DNA of 64,000 nt from an uncultured Thermotogae bacterium (GCA_964572855.1 CAZNGF010000002.1:30551-94550); one strand, 5' to 3'. Positions 973-42,274 are shown, counted from the stretch's first letter. Numbers and translations are program-made. Notes: generated by a model from the letters alone, not told the origin.

Positions 973-1330
973 TGGTGGAGGTGGCGGGAATCGAACCCGC
1001 GTCCGAAAACGTATCCGCTCGGCATCTACAGGCTTAGCTCCGCGTTTTGGCCTGAGACCGCTCGCTCCCACGGAGCGGGATCAAGCGGTCCGGTCCTCCT
1101 GAAAGTCCCGGCGGCGCCGGAGGCAAGCGACGCCGGCAAGCACCTGTTGTCTATGTCCGTCGGTTCCCTAGGTGCAGCGGGTTCCGGGGACAGCCCTTCC
1201 TTAGTTCAGGGAAGGAGCGGCAAACGCTAGTTCGTTGCCAGTTATTGGTGTGATTGCCGGATTAAGGAGCGGACAATCGCGCTCCGCCTGCAGCCTCGGT
1301 TCAACGTTCCCGTCGAAGCCGTTCACCCCC
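973..1330 (-). ncRNA. ssrA: Transfer-messenger RNA (tmRNA, ssrA).
   Basis: On the minus strand the 5' end reads GGGGGTGAACGGCTTCGACGGGAACG…, the canonical tmRNA 5' end. The 3' end reads …GGACGCGGGTTCGATTCCCGCCACCTCCACCA, a tRNA-Ala-like T-arm and acceptor with encoded CCA. An internal tag reading frame, …GGC AAC GAA CTA GCG TTT GCC GCT … TAA, begins after the region that would correspond to the first pseudoknot. Length is ~358 nt. Confidence 0.8.
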
Positions 1331-2840: not shown

Positions 2841-3797
2841 GTGGTTGAAACCGTGTTCCGAAAAACCGTGATCCCGATCGCCTACCTGCCGACCTCGGCC
2901 GCGACCTTGCGCTGGGGGGCACGGCTCACGCGTCGCCTCGGCAGCGACCTTACCGTGCTCTACACCGCGCAGGCCGCCCAGCAGGGCCCGCTGCACGCCA
3001 GCCTGGCGGCCGAGAAGATGTCCGAATGGGGGGTCGAACCGCCCAGCTTCGGTATCCTGCGCGAGGCCGAGGACGTGCTCAAGGCCGAGGGCGCGCTCAT
3101 GCTGGACGCCCGGGGACGGGTGGTGGAACGGCACGCCTTCAAGGCCGTCGACCGCGGCCTCTACGAGGTGCACGCGCGCGGCCCGCAAGGCGAAAACGTG
3201 CGCTTCCGGCTGCGGGAGGGTGCGGTCGTGAGCCAGATCCTGCAGGAAGTTGAGGACCCGTCCTACGACCTCATCTGCGTGGGCACCCGCGGCCGGCGCG
3301 GCTTCCGGCGCCACCTGCTGGGGAGCATCGCGCAGGACGTGGCCATGCACGCGCCGTGCTCGGTGCTGGTCGCCAAACACCTGGACCAAATCGAGCGGGT
3401 GCTCGTCGGCGTGACCGGCCGTGAGAGCTCGCGCGAGGCGTTGCGCCAGGCCGCCCAGCTGAGCCGCGCGCTCGAGCTCCCGCTCGAGCTCATCGCCATC
3501 TTCCCGAGCCCGGAACAGCGCGACGCCGCGGAGCAGAACCTCGCGGCGGGCATAGCGCTGGCCCGCGAGCTGGGCGTCGCTGCCACGCCGCGTCTCGAGC
3601 GCGGCGACCCCGCCCGGGTGCTGATCCACACCGCACTCGAGGGCACGCTGCTCGCGCTGGGGCGCACGCCGCTCTCGATGGTGCAAAAGTTCTTCCTCGG
3701 CGACACCTCGATCAAAGTTCTGGATCAAGGCCGGTGCTCGGTTCTCATTGCCGTCCCCCCCCGCCAGCCCGTGGAGGAAGACCGAACCGACGATTGA
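2841..3797 (+). CDS. Universal stress protein, tandem UspA domains.
   Basis: Two Usp-like halves are present. Each ends in the characteristic G(T/S)RGRRG…LGS(I/V)A…V…HAPC(S/P)VL(V/I) ATP-binding motif: LICVGTRGRRGFRRHLLGSIAQDVAMHAPCSVLVAKH, and a second, more degenerate C-terminal half LLALGRTPLSMVQKFFLGDTSIKVLDQGRCSVLIAV. The GTG start at 2841 is chosen because it lies just after the transporter stop at 2837-2839; the track ORF (from 2763) overlaps that gene. Confidence 0.65.
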   Translation: MVETVFRKTVIPIAYLPTSAATLRWGARLTRRLGSDLTVLYTAQAAQQGPLHASLAAEKMSEWGVEPPSFGILREAEDVLKAEGALMLDARGRVVERHAFKAVDRGLYEVHARGPQGENVRFRLREGAVVSQILQEVEDPSYDLICVGTRGRRGFRRHLLGSIAQDVAMHAPCSVLVAKHLDQIERVLVGVTGRESSREALRQAAQLSRALELPLELIAIFPSPEQRDAAEQNLAAGIALARELGVAATPRLERGDPARVLIHTALEGTLLALGRTPLSMVQKFFLGDTSIKVLDQGRCSVLIAVPPRQPVEEDRTDD

Positions 3798-3901
3798 GAC
3801 CCTTCGGCCCCGGCCGAGATCGGCACATGTCGGCTCGACCCGGGACAGACTTCGGCGCGCCCGCCAGCCCCCGTCCTCGTCCGCGGCGGACCGCTCCCGC
3901 T

Positions 3902-6820
3902 ATGCTGCGTCACCGTGACAAGGGGGGATCGGGAGTCGTGCGCACAAGCGTTTATCGTTTCGCGGGGGTGTCGCTTGCCGCCGTGCTAGTACTGACGGCG
4001 TGGGGGCAGCCTGCCGTTGGCGCCGACGCCCAAGTCTCGCTCGTCGCGCTCAACCGCACGGTGCGGGCCGACCCCGGCGCCTTCGTGACCCTGACCTTCC
4101 AGCTTCGGAACGAGGGCGATGCGGCCGTCGAGGTCCAACTGACCGCCGATATGCCGCCCGGATTGTCGCTCTTGGGTGGGCTCCCCGCGGTCATGCTCGC
4201 GGGCGCCTCGATCGAAAGCCTGTTCGTCACCGTCATCGTGAGCCGGGAAACCGAGGCGGGGCCGGCCATCGTTGCCTTGACTGCACGCATCGCGGGGGGA
4301 ATGGCGCGCGCCGAGGCGACCGTCGACGTCGAGCGCGTGGCCGGCCTTAGCTTGCGCCCTCCCCCGGATGGCTCGGCCGAGCCCGGCCAGTCCATCACGC
4401 TCGAATTCGGCGTAACCAACGACGGCAACGGCCCCGACCGGGTCGCCTTGGACGTGGACGCCCCGGCGGCGGTACAGGTCGCACCGACAAGCGCCTCGCT
4501 TACGCTGCTCGCGGGCGAAACCCGCCGGCTTGCGGTCACGCTGACCGTGCCGGCCGAAACCGACCTGCCGCGGGTTCGCGTCACGCTCGTGGCCAGCTCC
4601 ACCAGTTTCCCGACCGTGAGCGCTCGGGCAACGACCACGCTCGACGTGCTCCCTCCGCTGCCCGAGGCCGTGGGCGGGCGCCTCGTGCTCGAGGTGCCCA
4701 GCACCTTCGCGCTGGGGCCGACCGTCCTCCCCAACCGCGACGTCCCGCTGGTGCTCACGGCCAGTGTGGCGGGCGCGGCCGACTTCGACGACGGGGACCG
4801 CATCGACTATCGCCTCGCGCTCGACAACCTGGCCGTGCGCGACCTGCGTTTCGAACTGCGCCGCGGCGCGGTCGAGACCCGACTGGGTCGGCTCGCTGTG
4901 ACCTGGACCGAACTGATCGATCAAGCCGGAGACGGTGCTCAGCTCACGCTCGAGGGCCTGCCGTTGCAGGGGGCCGTGAGCCTGGCTGCGCTGCTCGACG
5001 GGCTCTGGCCCCGCGTGGGGACCCAACTCGGCGCGGATGTGGTCGGTATGCGACTCCAACTCAGCCAGCTCGCCCGCTTCGACCCCGAAGGGCGGGTCTG
5101 GCTCGGGTCGCTCTCGCTTACGCAATCCGTGGGCGAGGCGATTCGGTTAGGCAGCGAATGGGCACTCAGCCAAGCCGATACCGGGGAACGGGTTTGGGGC
5201 AACGTGATCCGTTTCGACTGGGAGGGGGACGACTTCCGCGTCGACGGCGAGTGGATCCGAACCGACGCGGCTTTCCTCGGCGACCGGCCCGGCCGGCGCG
5301 GGTTCCGGCTCGCCCAAGCGCTCGAGCACGACGATGTGGCCGTGCAGCTCGCCTACAGCCGCGTTCTCGATCAGGGGAACGTCTCAGGGACGGGCGCCCT
5401 GCTCGAAACCGCCTGGCGCTCGTCCCTGCGCTGGACGCCCTCGAGCCCGTGGCCTTCGTGGGTCGCACGCCTGGACTTCGACGGGGCGCACGCCCCCCCC
5501 AACCTGGGACAGTCAAGCCGCCTGCTGGCCAGCCTGGGGATGCGCCAGGAGATCGCTCCCCTCTCCCTCGGTGCCACTGCCAGCCGGCTGTCGTCGGTGG
5601 ACGCCACGGGCGCGCACGACGACTTGACGCTTCGCGCCGAGGCGGCGGTGGACCTGGCGCCGGCCCGTCTACTCCTGCGGGCCGGACAGACGCTTGCCGT
5701 CTCCCCGCTGCACGTCGCCCCGTCCCCCGCCGGCACCGAGCTGCTGGCCGCCCTGCAGCTCACCGGGGCGCTCGGGCGGGGGGCACTCTCCCTCCTGCTG
5801 TTGGGTGACGTGGTCACGGTCGACGCCGTGCTCGACTTACAAACGGGCCCCCTGCGCGCCGCAGCCGAGTTGGAACTCGAGCTCGACGCCGCCGGCCTGC
5901 TGAGCGCCGAGGCGCGCGCGGAACTCTCCGTGGCCTTCAACGCGCCGGTCGCCTTCATCCCGGTGGGCGGTCGGGTGACAGGGGTCGCCTTCGAGGACGC
6001 CAACCAGAACGGCCTCCGCGACTCCGACGAGGCTGGCATCGCCGACCTCGTGTTCCGCGTCGGCGACGCACGCGTCCGCACCGATGCGGAGGGACGCTAC
6101 CGCACGCCGCCGCTCTCCCCCGGGGCCTACGAGATCCGTCTAAACGCGCTCCCGCTCGAACTCGTCGCCGGACCCGTTCCCGGAACAGTCACCGTGAGCG
6201 CGGGGGAAACGAAACGGGCCGACCTGCCGCTCAACCGCGTGGGCGTCGTGCGCGGCGTCGTCTTTGACGACCGCGATCAAGACGGCATTCGGGACGCCGA
6301 CGAAGCCGGGCTGGAAAACGCGGTCGTGGACCTGCGTGGCGCGGGCCGCACCGCCCCCGGACGCACGGATGACCAAGGCCGCTTCAGCTTCAGCGGACTG
6401 GCCCCGGGGTCCTATCGCCTGACCCTCGATGTCTCCGCGCTCCCGCCCCGCAGCGAGCTCACCACCCCCGACACGATCGCGTTCACGCTTTCGCCGGGCC
6501 AAACCGTGGAAGCGGCCTTTGGCGCCTACCAAAGGCCGCGGGCCATCCGTTTCGTCCCGACCGCCACCTTCACCGTCTCTCCCGAGCTCCCGCAAGCGGG
6601 GGAACCCGTTACCTTTAACGGAAGCAACTCCTTCGATCCCGACGGGCGCGTCGTCGGCCACGCGTGGGATCTGGATGGAGACGGTCAAGCCGACGCGGAA
6701 GGCGCAACGGTCACGCGGACCTATGACCTGCCAGGCACCGTCCGCGTGACGCTCACCGTCCGCGACGACCAGGGGAACACGGACAGCTTAAGCCAAGACG
6801 TCGTGATCGCCGCGCCCTAG
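3902..6820 (+). CDS. Large secreted surface/adhesin-like protein carrying CARDB-like, Cna-B/SdrD-B-type (carboxypeptidase-regulatory-like) and C-terminal PKD domains.
   Basis: A signal peptide (…VYRFAGVSLAAVLVLTAWGQPAVGADA) is followed by repeated ~100-aa beta-sandwich modules with NDG/NEG motifs (CARDB-like). Two tandem repeats are of SdrD-B / Cna-B type: GRVTGVAFEDANQNGLRDSDEAGIADLVFRV…DAEGRYR and GVVRGVVFDDRDQDGIRDADEAGLENAVVDL…DDQGRFSF. The C-terminus (FNGSNSFDPDGRVVGHAWDLDGDGQ…VTLTVRDDQGNTD) is PKD-like. The start could be ATG 3902 or GTG 3938; the track start at 3734 runs through an R/P-rich, non-protein-like N-terminus. Confidence 0.7.
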   Translation: MLRHRDKGGSGVVRTSVYRFAGVSLAAVLVLTAWGQPAVGADAQVSLVALNRTVRADPGAFVTLTFQLRNEGDAAVEVQLTADMPPGLSLLGGLPAVMLAGASIESLFVTVIVSRETEAGPAIVALTARIAGGMARAEATVDVERVAGLSLRPPPDGSAEPGQSITLEFGVTNDGNGPDRVALDVDAPAAVQVAPTSASLTLLAGETRRLAVTLTVPAETDLPRVRVTLVASSTSFPTVSARATTTLDVLPPLPEAVGGRLVLEVPSTFALGPTVLPNRDVPLVLTASVAGAADFDDGDRIDYRLALDNLAVRDLRFELRRGAVETRLGRLAVTWTELIDQAGDGAQLTLEGLPLQGAVSLAALLDGLWPRVGTQLGADVVGMRLQLSQLARFDPEGRVWLGSLSLTQSVGEAIRLGSEWALSQADTGERVWGNVIRFDWEGDDFRVDGEWIRTDAAFLGDRPGRRGFRLAQALEHDDVAVQLAYSRVLDQGNVSGTGALLETAWRSSLRWTPSSPWPSWVARLDFDGAHAPPNLGQSSRLLASLGMRQEIAPLSLGATASRLSSVDATGAHDDLTLRAEAAVDLAPARLLLRAGQTLAVSPLHVAPSPAGTELLAALQLTGALGRGALSLLLLGDVVTVDAVLDLQTGPLRAAAELELELDAAGLLSAEARAELSVAFNAPVAFIPVGGRVTGVAFEDANQNGLRDSDEAGIADLVFRVGDARVRTDAEGRYRTPPLSPGAYEIRLNALPLELVAGPVPGTVTVSAGETKRADLPLNRVGVVRGVVFDDRDQDGIRDADEAGLENAVVDLRGAGRTAPGRTDDQGRFSFSGLAPGSYRLTLDVSALPPRSELTTPDTIAFTLSPGQTVEAAFGAYQRPRAIRFVPTATFTVSPELPQAGEPVTFNGSNSFDPDGRVVGHAWDLDGDGQADAEGATVTRTYDLPGTVRVTLTVRDDQGNTDSLSQDVVIAAP

Positions 6821-6848: not shown

Positions 6849-6876
6849 GTCTAGAATGGTTGCCATTAGGTATACT
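6849..6876 (+). promoter_or_regulatory. Copy 1 of a promoter-like motif GTCTA-N15-GGTATACT, resembling a sigma-B-type -35/-10 pair.
   Basis: GTCTA at 6849-6853 and GGTATACT at 6869-6876. The same bipartite motif recurs at 8700-8728 and 9075-9102. It is followed by a strong SD (AAAGGAGGTG) and an ATG at 6905. Confidence 0.3.
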
Positions 6877-7121
6877 TGGAAAACGTTGAAAGGAGGTGTG
6901 ACCCATGCAGCGCCGCGTCGGACGCACGCAATCGCAGCGCGAGACAGCCCAAACGGCCCGTCTCCGTCGTGAGGTGTCCGTCGCGCGCAGCGGTGTCACG
7001 CCACCACAACCGCAAGAAACCTTGCACGTGGTCGCTAAGCGCCAGTTGGGGCTCATCGATCCGATGAGCGTGGTCTTATGTGGTTACGCGGGTCAAACCG
7101 ATCGTTTCTTCATGGAAGCAT

Positions 7122-7180
7122 CTACAAGGGCAAACCAAGCGAAAGCCTGGGGCGCAAAGCTACGGCCTTCTAGGTCCGCA
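7122..7180 (+). promoter_or_regulatory. Possible degenerate or partial upstream c-di-GMP-I (GEMM)-like aptamer, i.e. the 5' half of a tandem arrangement.
   Basis: The sequence aagGGCAAACCaagcGAAAGcctggGGCGCAAAGCtacgg closely matches the GEMM 5' half: GGCAAACC, then a P2 hairpin with a GAAA tetraloop, then GACGCAAAGCC. No convincing 3' half (ACAGCCGGG…ACCG) follows before the next aptamer begins. Confidence 0.3.
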
Positions 7181-7252
7181 CGAACAAGGCAAACCCGCCG
7201 CGAGGCGGCGACGCAAAGCCACGGGTCTCTTGCAGACAGCCGGGCTACCGTA
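7178..7252 (+). promoter_or_regulatory. c-di-GMP-I (GEMM) riboswitch-like aptamer in the 5' leader of the downstream secreted pilin-like gene.
   Basis: The sequence acaaGGCAAACCcgccGCGAggcgGCGACGCAAAGCCacgggtctcttgcagACAGCCGGGCTACCG carries the hallmark GEMM-I blocks. These are GGCAAACC, a P2 hairpin with a GNRA tetraloop, GACGCAAAGCC, and a P3 with a conserved 3' ACAGCCGGG(Y)UACCG. A near-identical arrangement is found at 9150-9222. Downstream, CCTAATG…CATTAGGAGG could form a hairpin that sequesters the RBS. Confidence 0.55.
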
Positions 7253-7307
7253 GCGTACCTAATGGTGGCAGAGCCGCTAGATGCGACATCATTAGGAGGT
7301 GCTTTTT

Positions 7308-7745
7308 ATGAAGAAAGTAAGCATGTTGTTTGCGACGTTTGCGGTGTTGGGCATGGTGACAATGGCCGTTTGGGCCGGCAACAGCGACAAGGCGCAGGTT
7401 GGCTTCTCGTTGGAGCAGTACTTTTCACTGGAAGTCAAAAACGGCGCCAACGTCGAGTTCGGCACGCTGGACGCCCTGGCCGGGCCGTTCGAGAAGAAAA
7501 ACGGTTCCGCGCTCAAGGTCGACAGCAACACGAGCTGGAGCATCAGCACCAGCAAAGCGGTGCTGACGAGCCCCAACGGCGCCAACGCCGACACCGTACT
7601 CAACGCCCTGGCCGTCTCGCTCGAAACCGAGAGCGGGATAGGCAAAGACGCGGACATCAAGGTGGATTACGCCTTGGACAACCTCGAGGACCTGCCCACG
7701 GGTGACTATGTCGTCGAGGTGACGTTTACGGGTAGCACCAAGTAA
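7308..7745 (+). CDS. Small secreted protein (145 aa), paralog of the 9233..9748 product. Putative donor-strand pilin-like subunit (SCPU/CsuA/B-like).
   Basis: RBS AGGAGGTG precedes ATG 7308, and the signal peptide is MKKVSMLFATFAVLGMVTMAVWA. The mature N-terminus has an alternating-hydrophobic strand (QVGFSLEQYFSLEV). The C-terminus, …KVDYALDNLEDLPTGDYVVEVTFTGSTK, resembles the G-x-Y-x-D-T-L-x-V-T-V-x-F ending of SCPU/Csu pilins. It is clearly homologous to the second paralog (SNTSWSIS…/SNAPWVVN…; VDYALD…GDYVVEV / VDYRVR…GDYALDL). Confidence 0.6.
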   Translation: MKKVSMLFATFAVLGMVTMAVWAGNSDKAQVGFSLEQYFSLEVKNGANVEFGTLDALAGPFEKKNGSALKVDSNTSWSISTSKAVLTSPNGANADTVLNALAVSLETESGIGKDADIKVDYALDNLEDLPTGDYVVEVTFTGSTK

Positions 7746-7789
7746 CCCACATAAGGCTGCCACATAGGACCACTGCTGCAAGCAAGCAC

Positions 7790-7819
7790 GCGGGGGCGGG
7801 TCAAGCGACCTGCCCCCGC
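7790..7819 (+). terminator. GC-rich hairpin, candidate intrinsic terminator after the pilin-like gene.
   Basis: GCGGGGGCGGGTC-aagc-GACCTGCCCCCGC forms a 13-bp stem with one G·U pair. It lies 45 nt after the stop at 7745. The 3' U-tract is weak (ctcattg). Confidence 0.4.
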
Positions 7820-7923
7820 CTCATTGTCCCCGACCGCCCAAGGTCATCGTCGTTACAGGGGGGCCTGCGTGGGTACGCTAGAATTGGGTACAATCTCCGT
7901 ATCCACCCCGCTCCCGGAGGCTT

Positions 7924-8697
7924 TTGGCGATGGATTCAGAACAACTTCTTGCGCAACTGGCTCGGCTGCACGCCCAAGCCGCGCCGCAGGATCAAATCCT
8001 CAAGCTCAAGGAGGAGCTCGTTGAGGCCAACGTCGGCCTCGTGACCTCGATAGCCAAGCGCTTCGTCCACTCCGGCGAACCCTTAGAGGATCTCGTTCAG
8101 GCCGGCTACATCGGCCTCCTCAACGCCGTCCACAACTTCGACCTCAACCGCGGCACCAAGTTCTCGACTTACGCCACTTACCTCATCCAGGGCGAAATCC
8201 GGCACCACATCCGCGACAAGAACACCACCATCCGCCTGCCGCAGTGGCTTCAAAAGCTGAGCCAACAGGTCAAGCGCGCCGAGGAGCGTTTCTATCAGGA
8301 ACACGGACGCCTGCCCACCATCGCCCAGCTTTCCGACGCCCTCAACATCGAGGAGGACGGCATTCGAGAAGCCCTCAAGGCCCGCGAAGCGCTTCATTAC
8401 GTCTCCATCGATGCCGAGCGTCGAGAAGAGGATCCCCGTCCCCTCGCCTTCGACCCGAGCAAGATCCGCAGCAAACACCCGGACGAGTTCCCGATCGAGT
8501 ACAGGATTAAGATCGCCTCCGCCATCGAGACGCTCACCGACCTGCAACAGCGCGTCATCAACGACCTCTTCTACGCCGGCAAATCCCAAGCCCAGGTGGG
8601 CCAGGAGGTCGGTTACTCCCAGCGCCACATCTCCCGCATCAAGCAAGAGGTCCTCGATGCCATCAGGGGAGAATTCGACGAGCAGGACCCCGAATAA
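7924..8697 (+). CDS. RNA polymerase sigma factor, sigma-70 family group 3 (SigB/SigF/SigG-like).
   Basis: 257 aa. Region 2 (DLVQAGYIGLLNAVHNFDLNRGTKFSTYATYLIQGEIRHHIRDK) and region 4 HTH (QRVINDLFYAGKSQAQVGQEVGYSQRHISRIKQEVLDAIRGEF) are recognisable, with no region 1.1. A GGAGG RBS lies 10 nt upstream of the ATG. A TACAAT -10-like hexamer is at 7889-7894. Confidence 0.85.
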   Translation: MAMDSEQLLAQLARLHAQAAPQDQILKLKEELVEANVGLVTSIAKRFVHSGEPLEDLVQAGYIGLLNAVHNFDLNRGTKFSTYATYLIQGEIRHHIRDKNTTIRLPQWLQKLSQQVKRAEERFYQEHGRLPTIAQLSDALNIEEDGIREALKAREALHYVSIDAERREEDPRPLAFDPSKIRSKHPDEFPIEYRIKIASAIETLTDLQQRVINDLFYAGKSQAQVGQEVGYSQRHISRIKQEVLDAIRGEFDEQDPE

Positions 8698-8699
8698 GG

Positions 8700-8728
8700 T
8701 CTACGCGCCCGCGCTTCTAGGTATACTC
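8700..8728 (+). promoter_or_regulatory. Copy 2 of the GTCTA-N16-GGTATACT promoter-like motif.
   Basis: GTCTA at 8700-8704 and GGTATACT at 8721-8728. It lies 36 nt upstream of ATG 8764. Confidence 0.35.
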
Positions 8729-8763
8729 CCAAGCAACGATGGGACGCGGACGGAAGGACGCCC

Positions 8764-9057
8764 ATGAGTGATACCGCCAACGCGGACGATCGGGGGGAGT
8801 TCCTCGTGACACTGCTCAGCGACGTCAACAGCGCCATTAGCGAACTGGTCGACCTCAGCGTCGCCTGGTCGAACGGCGACTTCCCGCGCGCCCACGCCAA
8901 GTGCGACTTGGTTTTCGCGCGACTCGAGCGCGCCGCCGCGGCCGCCCAGGGAGAAGCAACCCGTTCGGCGCGTGCCCAACGTTACCTCCACCAGCTGGAC
9001 GACGTTCGCGACCAACTGACCCCGCTGCGCCCCATCCTCGCCAACCGCATCGGTTAA
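8764..9057 (+). CDS. Hypothetical protein (97 aa), acidic N-terminus, no recognisable domain.
   Basis: ORF directly downstream of the sigma factor gene and behind motif copy 2. The composition is protein-like (MSDTANADDRGEFLVTLLSDVNSAISELVDLS…). No signal peptide. Confidence 0.45.
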   Translation: MSDTANADDRGEFLVTLLSDVNSAISELVDLSVAWSNGDFPRAHAKCDLVFARLERAAAAAQGEATRSARAQRYLHQLDDVRDQLTPLRPILANRIG

Positions 9058-9074
9058 GCCTTCATCCCGTGAAT

Positions 9075-9102
9075 GTCTAACTCGGCCGCTTCCAGGTATA
9101 AT
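9075..9102 (+). promoter_or_regulatory. Copy 3 of the GTCTA-N15-GGTATAAT promoter-like motif, directly upstream of the second riboswitch leader.
   Basis: GTCTA at 9075-9079 and GGTATAAT at 9095-9102. The predicted TSS lies ~9108-9110 at the conserved leader element TTACCGCGGTCAAA, which is also present at 7084-7098. Confidence 0.4.
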
Positions 9103-9149
9103 CATTACCGCGGTCAAATGCCGCCGTGAAGAAGCCACAGCTTCACATC

Positions 9150-9222
9150 GCGAAAAAGGTAAACCCGCCGCGAGACGGGGACACAAAGCCACGGGTCTCT
9201 AGAAGACAGCCGGGCCGCCGAA
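9150..9222 (+). promoter_or_regulatory. c-di-GMP-I (GEMM) riboswitch-like aptamer, second copy.
   Basis: The sequence aaaaaGGTAAACCcgccGCGAgacgggGACACAAAGCCacgggtctctagaagACAGCCGGGCCGCCG has the same block order as the 7178-7252 copy. Differences sit at loop or compensatory positions (loop cttgc vs ctagaag). The aptamer ends 11 nt before ATG 9233 and directly abuts the RBS (GAAGGGGTGAAGC-ATG), which is consistent with translational control. Confidence 0.55.
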
Positions 9223-9232
9223 GGGGTGAAGC

Positions 9233-9748
9233 ATGAGACACGCAAACCTTAGCTTGCTCGCGCTTGGCGCGCTGCTCGTTTTCGTCGGCGGCTTTTGGGC
9301 CGATGGTGCAACCCAGACCGAGGTCGTTTTTCACCTCGCGCCGTTTCAAACCCTCTCGCTGGCGGACGGACCCTTCGGTGCGCGCACCGCTTACAGCGTG
9401 CACATCCCACAGCCCAGCGCGCGCGAACTCGCCCGCGGTCACGTCGACGTTCCGGGGGCGGTCACCCTCAACGTCCACAGCAACGCCCCGTGGGTCGTCA
9501 ACGTCCGCGCCCTCAGTCCGGACATGGGCCACAGCGACGACGGCGCCGTCACCAAGCCACTCGCCGACTTTCAACTCCGCGCCGCAAATCGCCCCTACAT
9601 CACACTCGATACCCAAGACCAACGACTCATCCAGGGAGACCACGGACGCTTCTCCTTCGAGGTGGACTACCGCGTCCGCTTCGACCCACGCACCCATCGC
9701 GACGGCGACTATGCGCTCGACCTCCTCTACACCATCACCAGTCGCTGA
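9233..9748 (+). CDS. Small secreted protein (171 aa), paralog of 7308..7745. Putative SCPU/Csu-like donor-strand pilin subunit.
   Basis: Signal peptide MRHANLSLLALGALLVFVGGFWA. Homologous blocks to paralog 1 are present, including the C-terminal …FEVDYRVRFDPRTHRDGDYALDLLYTITSR. The gene is preceded by riboswitch copy 2. Confidence 0.6.
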   Translation: MRHANLSLLALGALLVFVGGFWADGATQTEVVFHLAPFQTLSLADGPFGARTAYSVHIPQPSARELARGHVDVPGAVTLNVHSNAPWVVNVRALSPDMGHSDDGAVTKPLADFQLRAANRPYITLDTQDQRLIQGDHGRFSFEVDYRVRFDPRTHRDGDYALDLLYTITSR

Positions 9749-9802: not shown

Positions 9803-10840
9803 ATGAAGCCGCCCATCTACCTACTCATCGCCGCAGTGGTCCTGATTGTTGTCGCCCCGCCGGCCCAGGCGCTTCGCCTCTCCCGAATCGAGTTCGACCT
9901 CTCCCTCCCGCCCGGCGCGCGGGAAACCTTTTCCTTCCACGTTTTCAACGACGAGGCGGAGGAAACCACCGTTTCGCTCTCGCTGGCCGACTGGGATCGA
10001 ACGCTCGACGGCGAGAATCGTTTCTTCGAGCCCGGCACCAACGCGCGCTCGGCCAGCGATTGGATCACCTTCGCCCCCAACCAGTTCACCCTCGCGCCCG
10101 ACGAAACCGCCGAGGTCCGCTTCACCCTCAACGTCCCCCCCGACGTCCGCGGCACCCACTGGGCAGCCCTCTTGGTCGAAGGCTCGCCGCGCGAGGTCGA
10201 CACCCAGGGCGGGACCACCATCCTCGTTCGCCGCCGTTTCGCCGTCAAGATCCTGCAAACCCCTCCCGACACCGGGGCGCAGGACATACGGCTCCTCGGG
10301 CTCGACGTCGCGGGCCTTAACCCCCTTACCGTTCACCTTCGCGTCCGCAACGCCGGCACGCGCAACCTCGCCGCCGTCAAGGGCCGCCTCGAGCTGCGCG
10401 ACCAAACCGGCACGCTCGAATCCGTCCCCATCGAGGACTTTCCCATGCTTCCCGGCGCCGAGCGGCGCGTCACCGTCGCCAGCAAACGCTTCCGCAACGA
10501 GCCCTTCCCCGCCGGCCGCTTCCTCGTCCTCGCCATCCTAGATTTCGGCGGGGACGACCTGCTCGGCGGCCAGCTCAACCTCAACGTCCCAGCTATCCAG
10601 CTCGCCCCCCTGGAGCCTCAATTGTCACTGCCTCAGGACCTCGACCGGGACGGTCTGTTCGAGGATGTCAACGGAGACGGCCAACTGACCGACGACGACC
10701 CCGTCCTCCTCGGCTTCCACTTGGACAATCCGGCCGTCCTCGACAACCATCGCCTCTTCGATTACGACAACGACGGCGACGTGGACTTCGACGACGTGCT
10801 CGCCCTCCGCGCCCGCGTCGAAACCCAATCCGACGCCTAA
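9803..10840 (+). CDS. Secreted protein with an N-terminal fimbrial-chaperone-like (PapD-like Ig-fold?) region and a C-terminal dockerin-type Ca-binding repeat pair.
   Basis: The preferred start is ATG 9803, which gives the signal peptide MKPPIYLLIAAVVLIVVAPPAQA. An alternative ATG at 9752 lies 3 nt after the pilin stop. The N-terminal segment RIEFDLSLPPGARETFSFHVFNDEAEETTVSLSLADW resembles the chaperone N-domain pattern. The C-terminus DVNGDGQLTDDDPVLL…DYDNDGDVDFDDVLAL is a dockerin / EF-hand-like duplicated D-x-N/D-x-D-G motif. Confidence 0.5.
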   Translation: MKPPIYLLIAAVVLIVVAPPAQALRLSRIEFDLSLPPGARETFSFHVFNDEAEETTVSLSLADWDRTLDGENRFFEPGTNARSASDWITFAPNQFTLAPDETAEVRFTLNVPPDVRGTHWAALLVEGSPREVDTQGGTTILVRRRFAVKILQTPPDTGAQDIRLLGLDVAGLNPLTVHLRVRNAGTRNLAAVKGRLELRDQTGTLESVPIEDFPMLPGAERRVTVASKRFRNEPFPAGRFLVLAILDFGGDDLLGGQLNLNVPAIQLAPLEPQLSLPQDLDRDGLFEDVNGDGQLTDDDPVLLGFHLDNPAVLDNHRLFDYDNDGDVDFDDVLALRARVETQSDA

Positions 10841-10949: not shown

Positions 10950-11495
10950 ATGCGAAAGGTGTATTCCTGTTTAGCCCTGCTATTGCTTGCCGTTTCCCTC
11001 GTCTCAGCAGTCCCCACAGACGCCTATGCCCGCGACGGTGCGGCCGGCGGCGTCTTCTTCGATCCGGCCGGTGGTCTCTCCGACGGCGGCGTGCTCCCCA
11101 TGACCCGTCTAGTACTCGGCAGCGGCTTCACCGTTGCTCATCTCGACATCCTCTTCGGCATCTCCACCGCGTCCATCCCCAACCCGGGCGTTCGCTTCCT
11201 CCCGTATTGGGTCTTGAACTTCCCGCTCAAGTTCAGCTCCCTGGCCGTTCTCACACCATACTTTGGGGTCTCCCCGGTCCTCTTCACCACCAGCGCACTC
11301 GCCGTGCCGCCTGCCGCCGACTGGATCTTCAAGTTCGGCACCACCTTTACCTTCGGCGGTTTTGGCTTTTTCGCAGAAACCGGCTTCTTCGTCCCCTTGG
11401 CCTCGTTCCCGGCCTTCGCCGTAGGCTTCAGTGTCGATTTCGAATCCATGGATTCCCTCTTTTGCGACACGTGCATCGACGAATCCGTCTACTGA
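10950..11495 (+). CDS. Hypothetical secreted protein (181 aa), Gly/Phe-rich beta-rich C-terminal half.
   Basis: RBS GGAAGGAGG precedes the ATG. Signal peptide MRKVYSCLALLLLAVSLVSAVPTDAYA. No recognisable domain. It is the last gene of the accessory cluster. Confidence 0.5.
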   Translation: MRKVYSCLALLLLAVSLVSAVPTDAYARDGAAGGVFFDPAGGLSDGGVLPMTRLVLGSGFTVAHLDILFGISTASIPNPGVRFLPYWVLNFPLKFSSLAVLTPYFGVSPVLFTTSALAVPPAADWIFKFGTTFTFGGFGFFAETGFFVPLASFPAFAVGFSVDFESMDSLFCDTCIDESVY

Positions 11496-42115: not shown

Positions 42116-42274
42116 CGTCCCTCCCGTGCGCTGCCTTGACGCTACCCGCGCGGGCCGGCGGCGCGCAACGACGCGCGTCCGCCCCGCGCGGGCCACCCGC
42201 CCGTACGCGTTGCATTCGCCCAGCCAAACGTCCCTTGACAAGCCCTCCGGGCGAGGCTACAATGGGGGCATCTC

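Follow-up and report, generated by a model that had tools for sequence, protein, structure and literature searches.

The window analysed here is a stretch of 64,000 nucleotides (nt) catalogued under an uncultured Thermotogae bacterium (GCA_964572855.1 CAZNGF010000002.1:30551-94550), in which three copies of a two-box motif, GTCTA-N15/16-GGTATA(A/C)T, are found around a gene for an alternative sigma factor and in the company of two cyclic di-GMP (c-di-GMP) riboswitches. We regard it as fairly likely that these copies (sites 1–3, Table 1) are non-housekeeping promoters of the group-3 type, most probably read by the sigma factor of 7930-8697. The designation of this protein as the cognate factor would follow from conserved adjacency and family resemblance, both of them read from sequence. 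The homologs of the sigma factor come from sources named Bipolaricaulota, Acetothermia or Fraserbacteria, and the organism is therefore considered an uncultured member of Bipolaricaulota; its G+C content is approximately 67%.

Occurrence and placement of the motif

A scan of both strands of the window with GTCTA-N{15,16}-GGTATAMT returned exactly three matches, all on the plus strand, in agreement with an earlier note on this DNA that had listed three such copies. As a null, 100 dinucleotide-preserving shuffles of the window were used, which gave a mean of 0.00 and a maximum of 0 matches. Allowing one mismatch added no further site in the 64 kilobases (kb), and with up to two mismatches the number of sites (7) was at shuffle level (mean 8.6). 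Of the four copies of the -10-like octamer GGTATANT in 64 kb, three belong to sites 1–3, and the hexamer TATACT is present only twice on the two strands (128 kb), at sites 1 and 2. The looser pattern GGTAYANT has five occurrences in the window, the fourth intergenic one being the -10 of the sigma gene itself, GGTACAAT. The description of the motif as locus-specific holds within the 64 kb scanned and is limited to that stretch.

All three sites are intergenic and located upstream of plus-strand genes, and each copy displays two boxes at a fixed spacing, within the 14–18 base pairs (bp) expected of a group-3 promoter, with a -10 box that opens in GG. Site 1 lies 29 nt past the stop codon of a gene for a 1028-residue protein and heads a leader of about 300 nt running into riboswitch 1, with a predicted transcription start near 6880-6884. 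Site 2 begins 2 nt 3' of the stop codon of the sigma gene, and 36 nt separate its 3' end from the ATG (8764) of a small open reading frame (ORF). It had been placed one base too high, at 8700-8728 instead of 8699-8727; the distance of 36 nt given with it is right when counted from 8727. Site 3 is situated 18 nt 3' of the small ORF and 46 nt 5' of riboswitch 2.

Right after site 1, a strong AGGAGG ribosome-binding site (RBS) and an ATG (6891-6907) open a 266-codon ORF (6905-7705), which runs through riboswitch 1 and overlaps the gene for a 145-residue protein in another frame. The layout of promoter, RBS and start at this point looks like that before the sigma genes of relatives. ORF 6905-7705 was rejected as a coding sequence, its G+C content at third codon positions (GC3) being 0.64 vs 0.78-0.85 in real genes.

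Conservation of the putative promoter behind the sigma gene

The comparison set consisted of 80 sigma-ortholog loci taken from species-representative genomes and 17 further contigs of the closest relatives; individual loci are cited by handles of the form L085. In every lineage whose sigma factor is 68-100% identical (10 lineages), the same two boxes were observed after the sigma gene. They read GTCTA-N16-GGCATACT in L085, L086 and L087/88, GTCTA-N16-GGCATATT in L090/91, GTCTA-N16-GGTATATT in L083 and L001, GTCTA-N15-GGCATAGT in L089, GGCTA-N16-GGCATAAT in L092 and GTCTA-N16-GGCATAGT in L094. Alignment of the 10 post-sigma regions with MAFFT revealed invariant G, C, T and A positions in box 1 and invariant A, G, G, A, T, A and T positions in box 2. 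The mean column identity of these regions is 49%, and the spacers are unrelated. The clade genomes span 47-65% G+C, and the conservation of the boxes is therefore not due to base composition.

Beyond this clade, 47 of the 80 loci carry (A)ACT(A/G)(A/G)-N15-GG(C/A/T)ATAAT(C) at the end of the sigma gene. In most of those Bipolaricaulota, the -35 box (AAC-TAG) takes its last three bases from the sigma stop codon, be it TAG, TAA or TGA, and the GG follows at a distance of exactly 15 nt (L025-L080, e.g. L031 6754-6785). The upstream box is retained both where the motif sits 25-38 nt past the stop codon (L045, L052, L057, L069, L072, L073 and L076) and where it falls within the final codons (L025, L043, L063, L070 and L078). 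The box is thus kept at varied positions relative to the stop, and coding constraint is therefore not its explanation.

A position weight matrix (PWM; AACTAR-N15-GGnATAAT), trained only on the 47 sites from other Bipolaricaulota genomes, recovered the sites of the window as its top three matches in 128 kb, with 17.2 bits for site 1, 14.4 bits for site 2 and 18.4 bits for site 3; the next match in the window reached 13.3 bits. In the case of L097 and L098, the single best match of the matrix is the post-sigma site. Additionally, a 20-bit match, GGCTAGA-N12-TGAGGCATAATG, was observed on the plus strand of L083 (1240-1270), about 270 nt 5' of a DUF3179 gene. A DUF3179 gene also stands immediately 5' of the sigma gene in L089, and the one in L083 may be a further target.

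The post-sigma -10 of L001 is bracketed by a perfect 10-nt inverted repeat, TTCCTGCCTA / TAGGCAGGAA (6872-6903). A dyad operator was considered as an identity for the motif and rejected: the sites share no inverted repeat, and the repeat of L001 is absent from its close relative L083. The palindrome GTATAC is limited to the window's own sites.

Comparison with housekeeping promoters

The housekeeping promoters of the window and of related genomes present a different picture from that of the motif. In the window, the promoter of the tRNA-Glu gene reads TTGAGC-N17-TATAAT and that of the transfer-messenger RNA (tmRNA) gene TTGAGA-N17-TAAAAT. The hexamer TACAAT follows TTGnnn boxes in six of its eight occurrences, e.g. 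TTGACA-N17-TACAAT at 42258. The syntenic tRNA-Leu promoter of 24 related genomes has the form TTGAC(A/C)-N17-TA(C/A)(C/G/A)AT, in which T-12 and A-11 are invariant and no GG is present. That TACAAT is a common housekeeping -10 in the window, as the earlier note had proposed, is borne out by these data; the sigma gene's own -10, which the note described as housekeeping-like, is not cleanly so, given the GG extension in GGTACAAT.

No site was detected between 6700 and 11000 by a sigma-70 consensus scan, and the hexamers at sigma-70 -35 spacing of sites 1–3 (CGTCTA and similar) have at most one of six bases in common with TTGACA, confirming the unlikeness that had been pointed out for the -35 part. 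Before the hexamer, the sites read A-G-G and lack the TG at -15/-14 that marks an extended -10. Furthermore, in the phylum-wide post-sigma sites (n=47) the base at -12 is free (C in 23, A in 17 and T in 7) and both preceding G's are invariant. By this measure, a free -12 combined with an invariant GG is unlike sigma-70 -10 elements, and the motif is, as judged from these comparisons, a promoter class distinct from the housekeeping one. A housekeeping-promoter identity was rejected on the content of the -35 and on the comparison with the tRNA, tmRNA and TACAAT promoters.

The sigma factor gene and its own promoter

The gene placed at 7924..8697 by the earlier note is real, with a likelier start six nt downstream. 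The RBS spacing and database protein P0001 make ATG 7930 the most likely start over TTG 7924; an exact look-up of the 257-residue TTG-start protein gave no match, the database protein beginning at ATG 7930. The top NCBIfam model for the 255-residue product is TIGR02980 (SigBFG, 194.8 bits), ahead of all RpoD, RpoS and FliA models, and Pfam sigma regions 2, 3 and 4 are present, with no region 1.1. Its closest solved relative is the sigma-F of the SpoIIAB complex (1L0O chain C, E 8.7e-30). The proposed membership in the group-3 family agrees with both of these results. Orthologs of the sigma factor are present throughout Bipolaricaulota.

At the position of the pre-sigma -10, relatives of the window show GGTATAAT, GGTATACT or GGTCCAAT. 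Phylum-wide, 32 of 35 loci have TATACT as this element, mostly with G or C before it and with no conserved -35, and the sigma gene's own promoter is, by its sequence pattern, a member of this pre-sigma class with a TATACT-type -10 and no conserved -35. The pre-sigma promoter lies about 60-120 nt 5' of the sigma start in the 35 related loci (e.g. L025 5918-5931). Inspection of the alignment by eye for covariation of region 4.2 residues of the sigma factor with the -35 variant (GT-CTA vs AA-CTA) gave no usable signal. In L089, L090, L092 and L094, the sigma gene is preceded by a gene for a membrane-anchored protein of about 180 residues and no known family, with 35-53% mutual identity, which replaces the riboswitch-led secreted protein there.

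Riboswitches and the counterparts of site 3

Both c-di-GMP riboswitches named in the earlier note are real, and their scores exceed the gathering threshold of the Rfam c-di-GMP-I-GGC family (Table 1). The same riboswitch class was also identified in L085, L088, L013, L083, L001, L097 and L098. In a fold of 7240-7316, CCUAAUGGUG pairs with CAUCAUUAGG, and the hairpin 3' of aptamer 1 overlaps the RBS of the gene for the 145-residue protein; in the case of aptamer 2, the 3' P1 strand abuts the RBS and ATG 9233. Since both expression platforms overlap RBSs, the riboswitches probably act on translation, whether in an ON or an OFF sense.

A promoter of the same class before a riboswitch, as at site 3, was found in five related lineages. 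In L085, whose sigma factor is 88% identical, the counterpart of site 3 reads GTCTA-N15-GGTACAAT and is followed by the riboswitch. In L087/L088 (sigma 77%) it reads GTCTC-N16-GGCATACT, again followed by the riboswitch; in both cases the spacer has diverged. In L013, L097 and L098 (sigma 58-61%), a promoter of this class stands directly 3' of the sigma gene, with a c-di-GMP-I-GGC riboswitch behind it, the respective motifs being GCTAA-N15-GGGTACAAT, GCTGA-N15-GGTATAAT and GCTAA-N15-GGTATAAT.

A half-length aptamer of the same type, comprising the first hairpin only, lies directly 5' of riboswitch 1, and a similar tandem of half and full aptamer was observed at the end of L098 (11548-11628). 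Such a tandem may be a conserved element rather than the product of decay. The riboswitches of L001 (5163-5317) and L083 (9166-9319) carry an insertion of about 80 nt in the second arm.

The partner gene and the secreted proteins

A small ORF is located 3' of the sigma gene in all members of the clade, and a distinct, remotely related one occupies this place in 76 of the 80 loci. The two sets were linked by profile-profile comparison alone (hhalign probability 78-82%, E ~1e-5): a single-sequence search with the 97-residue protein of the window found only itself, and a hidden Markov model of the clade small ORFs did not recover those of the wider phylum. In L003-L020, the small ORF follows directly on the sigma stop codon, leaving no promoter between the two genes, and the sigma factor and its partner are therefore considered one functional unit. 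An AlphaFold2 model of the 97-residue protein, built from an eight-sequence alignment, is a confident bundle of 3-4 helices, with a predicted local distance difference test (pLDDT) score of 91. A SpoIIAB/RsbW kinase was rejected as its identity. The gene context suggests the hypothesis that the protein could be an anti-sigma or a co-factor.

The genes led by the riboswitches encode secreted proteins. For the 145-residue protein, an ortholog with 66% identity was found in L087, where it is riboswitch-led too, and no match was obtained in Pfam, NCBIfam or PDB. The 171-residue protein has orthologs in L083/L001 (40% identity) and in L098 (42%, riboswitch-led); its single-sequence AlphaFold2 model reached a pLDDT of only 55, and a metagenome scan with this family gave no new contig and did not extend the regulon. 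The gene that follows, for a protein of 345/362 residues, is probably co-transcribed with it and has an ortholog with 52% identity after the small ORF in L083/L001. Weak Pfam matches to Fn3_5 and WxLIP_PGBD were detected in this protein, as well as a weak match to Dockerin_1 in the ortholog; for the 145-, 171- and 362-residue proteins, nothing significant emerged from PDB or Pfam.

The 1028-residue protein upstream of site 1 (3734-6820) contains SdrD-B, PKD and CarboxypepD_reg domains, and a 181-residue protein with a signal peptide is encoded at 10950-11495. Together with the 345/362-residue protein, these flanking proteins suggest a cell-surface or adhesion gene cluster.

Table 1. Features of the window discussed in the text (aa, amino acids; positions counted from the first nucleotide of the window).
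Feature	Position	Strand	Remark
Site 1	6849..6876	+	GTCTA-N15-GGTATACT; exact match
Site 2	8699..8727	+	GTCTA-N16-GGTATACT; exact match
Site 3	9075..9102	+	GTCTA-N15-GGTATAAT; exact match
Group-3 sigma factor gene, SigB/F/G-like, 255 aa	7930..8697	+	NCBIfam, Pfam and PDB matches
Sigma gene's own -10, GGTACAAT	7887..7894	+	GGTAYANT scan
97-aa helical-bundle protein gene, conserved partner 3' of sigma	8764..9057	+
Half-length c-di-GMP-I-GGC-like aptamer, first hairpin only	7120..7168	+	33.3 bits, below gathering 59
c-di-GMP-I-GGC riboswitch aptamer 1	7179..7253	+	Rfam RF03167, 70 bits vs gathering 59
c-di-GMP-I-GGC riboswitch aptamer 2	9149..9223	+	Rfam RF03167, 76.2 bits vs gathering 59
145-aa secreted protein gene, no known family	7308..7745	+	GC3 0.84
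171-aa secreted beta-rich protein gene, no known family	9233..9748	+	GC3 0.78
345/362-aa secreted protein gene, dockerin-like C-terminus	9803..10840	+	L081 gene call starts at the equivalent of 9803
tmRNA gene	973-1330	-	tag peptide GNELAFAAPSLN; served as housekeeping reference

Comparison with known sigma factor systems

In Bacillus subtilis, sigma-F promoters have a -35 of GTATA and a -10 of GGNAANAMTR, and sigma-G promoters a -35 of GNATA and a -10 of CAWAMTA (PMC3416734). The motif shares with both the arrangement in two short boxes, and GTCTA agrees with GTATA / GNATA in four of five positions. The form GG(C/T)ATAMT opens with GG and closes with ANAMT, as sigma-F promoters do; its (C/T)ATAMT part fits the sigma-G core CAWAMT, which is present in the phylum form GG-CATAAT. 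The best solved relative and the best NCBIfam model of the locus sigma point to the same group. The phylum form AACTAR fits the GTATA / GNATA / GTTTAA -35 consensus less well than GTCTA does. In contrast to the Bacillus forespore system, the organism considered here is a non-sporulating uncultured member of Bipolaricaulota, and a 97-residue helical protein, instead of SpoIIAA/SpoIIAB, is encoded beside the sigma factor.

SigB promoters of B. subtilis and of the Streptomyces SigB homologs follow GTTTAA-N12-14-GGG(A/T)A(A/T) (PMC8346170). They resemble the motif in a -35 that opens with G-T, in the G-rich start of the -10 and in belonging to the same sigma subfamily. However, their spacer is 12-14 bp vs 15-16 bp here, and their -10, GGGTAT, lacks a TATAAT-like tail. 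On these sequence features, the nearest promoter relatives are those of sigma-F and sigma-G rather than sigma-B; the earlier note's likening of the -10 to the sigma-B element GGGTAT was right as to the kind of family and less so as to its closest member.

A functional parallel is provided by SigF of Synechocystis sp. PCC 6803, which is autoregulated, drives pilA1 and a gene for a periplasmic protein and has GGTAA at -12 in its promoters (PMC2532724). It is likewise a group-3 sigma with a stringent promoter unlike that of sigma-70 and with surface or secreted targets. Its upstream box is TAGGC at -32 within an AG-rich stretch, unlike that of the window, and no riboswitch layer is involved. Furthermore, the window sigma's own promoter carries no upstream box.

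FliA (sigma-28) and FlgM form a pair of a group-3 sigma and a small helical partner of about 97 residues, the partner gene being under the sigma's own promoter class. The window is alike in having a group-3 sigma with a small helical partner under a promoter that is probably of the sigma's own class. The locus sigma differs from FliA in that the FliA/WhiG model scores 92 bits on it, vs 195 for SigBFG, and the FliA promoter, TAAA-N15-GCCGATAA, is unlike the window motif. No similarity to FlgM was detectable in the 97-residue protein. A full-text literature search on sigma factors in Bipolaricaulota (Acetothermia/OP1) returned nothing relevant.

Weighing of alternative explanations

Several points weigh against the recognition of sites 1–3 by the neighbouring group-3 sigma. 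The start sites and the dependence of the three promoters on this sigma are predictions made from the DNA alone. The sigma factor scores below the curated TIGR02980 cut-off (194.8 vs 234.35 bits), a GTCTA box is absent upstream of its own -10, and no gene for a SpoIIAB/RsbW-type kinase or a STAS-domain (SpoIIAA/RsbV-type) protein was found among the Pfam-annotated neighbours over about 10 kb in the window and 10 related contigs. Between GG and ANAMT, the window -10 lacks one base of the sigma-F consensus, and the A in the middle of the sigma-F and sigma-G -35 boxes is replaced by C in the motif. PWM matches away from the post-sigma position, counted over 823 kb of related loci, were at shuffle level, with no wider regulon seen. 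The region of site 1 is covered only by the identical contig L081, so that this site is without comparative support, and some 300 nt separate it from the riboswitch. The Fraserbacteria-like L001 and L083 have their orthologous riboswitch gene 5' of the sigma gene, with an extended -10 (TGnTATACT), and a second riboswitch gene in L097 has TTGACT-N17-TATAAT; the wiring of motif to riboswitch is therefore lineage-specific. Finally, the -10 core TATACT / TATAAT would suit a housekeeping sigma too, and GTCTA could be an activator site.

This last point can be extended to a full alternative, in which the sites are primary-sigma promoters that have a strong -10 but lack a usable -35, and GTCTA/AACTAR is the site of an activator or repressor, possibly the partner of the 97-residue protein or another regulator. 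We consider it unlikely. The TATACT and TATAAT cores are near-consensus for sigma-70-type factors, promoters relying on the -10 alone exist in these genomes, as seen in the pre-sigma TATACT without a -35 across the phylum, and the extended -10 of the riboswitch gene in L001 and L083 fits the same explanation. However, the free -12 and the invariant GG at -14/-13 of the post-sigma sites are the opposite of what the tRNA-Leu promoters of the same genomes show. The GTCTA box stands at a fixed 15-16 bp from the GG, which is exactly the -35 position, and a box of only 5 nt with neither a dyad nor a repeat partner would be atypical for a regulator site.

The sites could instead be alternative-sigma promoters read by a different group-3 or other sigma factor encoded elsewhere, with the adjacent sigma as a mere neighbour or a target. 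In at least one related genome assembly the sigma gene is present as two paralogs (L013 and L021), SigB/F homologs are documented to recognise one another's promoters (PMC8346170), and the inspection of this genome covered 64 kb. Against these arguments, 47 of 80 loci have the promoter physically linked to the 3' end of the sigma gene, often overlapping the stop codon, and it occurs there in every closer relative from other assemblies (L083, L085-L095, L097 and L098). In addition, the 64-kb window holds no sigma-70-family gene other than that at 7930-8697, and a sigma gene beside a promoter that it reads is common for autoregulated alternative sigmas, e.g. Synechocystis SigF (PMC2532724). A distant reader is accordingly rated as improbable. 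As for a coincidence of AT-rich intergenic DNA or relics of local duplication with no shared function, intergenic DNA is relatively AT-rich in this 67% G+C genome and TATA-like strings gather there. Even so, such an origin is hardly credible and was rejected: it is contradicted by the shuffles, which gave 0 matches, by the recovery of the sites with a PWM from other genomes and by boxes that are invariant in 10 lineages amid unrelated spacers, and sites 1–3 have no similarity outside the two boxes.

Proposed mechanism and implications

If the sites are promoters of the neighbouring group-3 sigma, region 4 of this protein would touch the (G)TCTA box, and regions 2 and 3 would touch the GG-extended -10 (GGyATAmT), 15-16 bp past the first box. 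Transcription would begin approximately 5-8 nt past each -10. The first transcript would run from the ~300-nt leader through riboswitch 1 to the gene for the 145-residue secreted protein. The second would encode the 97-residue helical partner and represent an autoregulatory arm, possibly through an anti-sigma or co-factor. The third would carry riboswitch 2 and the genes for the 171-residue and 345/362-residue secreted proteins, and might extend into the gene after these. The riboswitches would gate translation via structures overlapping the RBSs, so that the surface-protein genes would need an active sigma factor and the right c-di-GMP level, as two serial controls on the same mRNAs. The feed-forward layout suggested in the earlier note is unsupported, because nothing links the sigma factor to c-di-GMP levels; sigma and riboswitch would act in series, in an AND-like manner. 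Taken together, that interpretation was partly supported, being largely right but over-specified.

At the level of the phylum, we tentatively propose, as a possibility to be taken seriously though not yet a likelihood, that Bipolaricaulota possess a module made up of a sigma-F-like sigma factor, a helical partner of a novel family and a CTAR-N15/16-GGnATAAT promoter over the sigma stop codon, placed here in series with c-di-GMP-I-GGC riboswitches controlling secreted surface proteins. In such a module, the partner would possibly be a new kind of anti-sigma or co-factor replacing the SpoIIAB/RsbW kinase system. An alternative sigma factor with its own promoter motif beside its gene is a well-established principle, and the present result extends its understanding and overturns nothing. 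If the proposal is true, the module would give this uncultured phylum its first promoter code and its first defined regulon, with a concrete alternative-sigma promoter consensus and a way to predict the regulon in metagenome-assembled genomes. It would also provide a candidate new partner protein for a sigma-F-like factor, as well as a clear natural case in which sigma factor and second-messenger riboswitch control are stacked on the same surface-protein genes.

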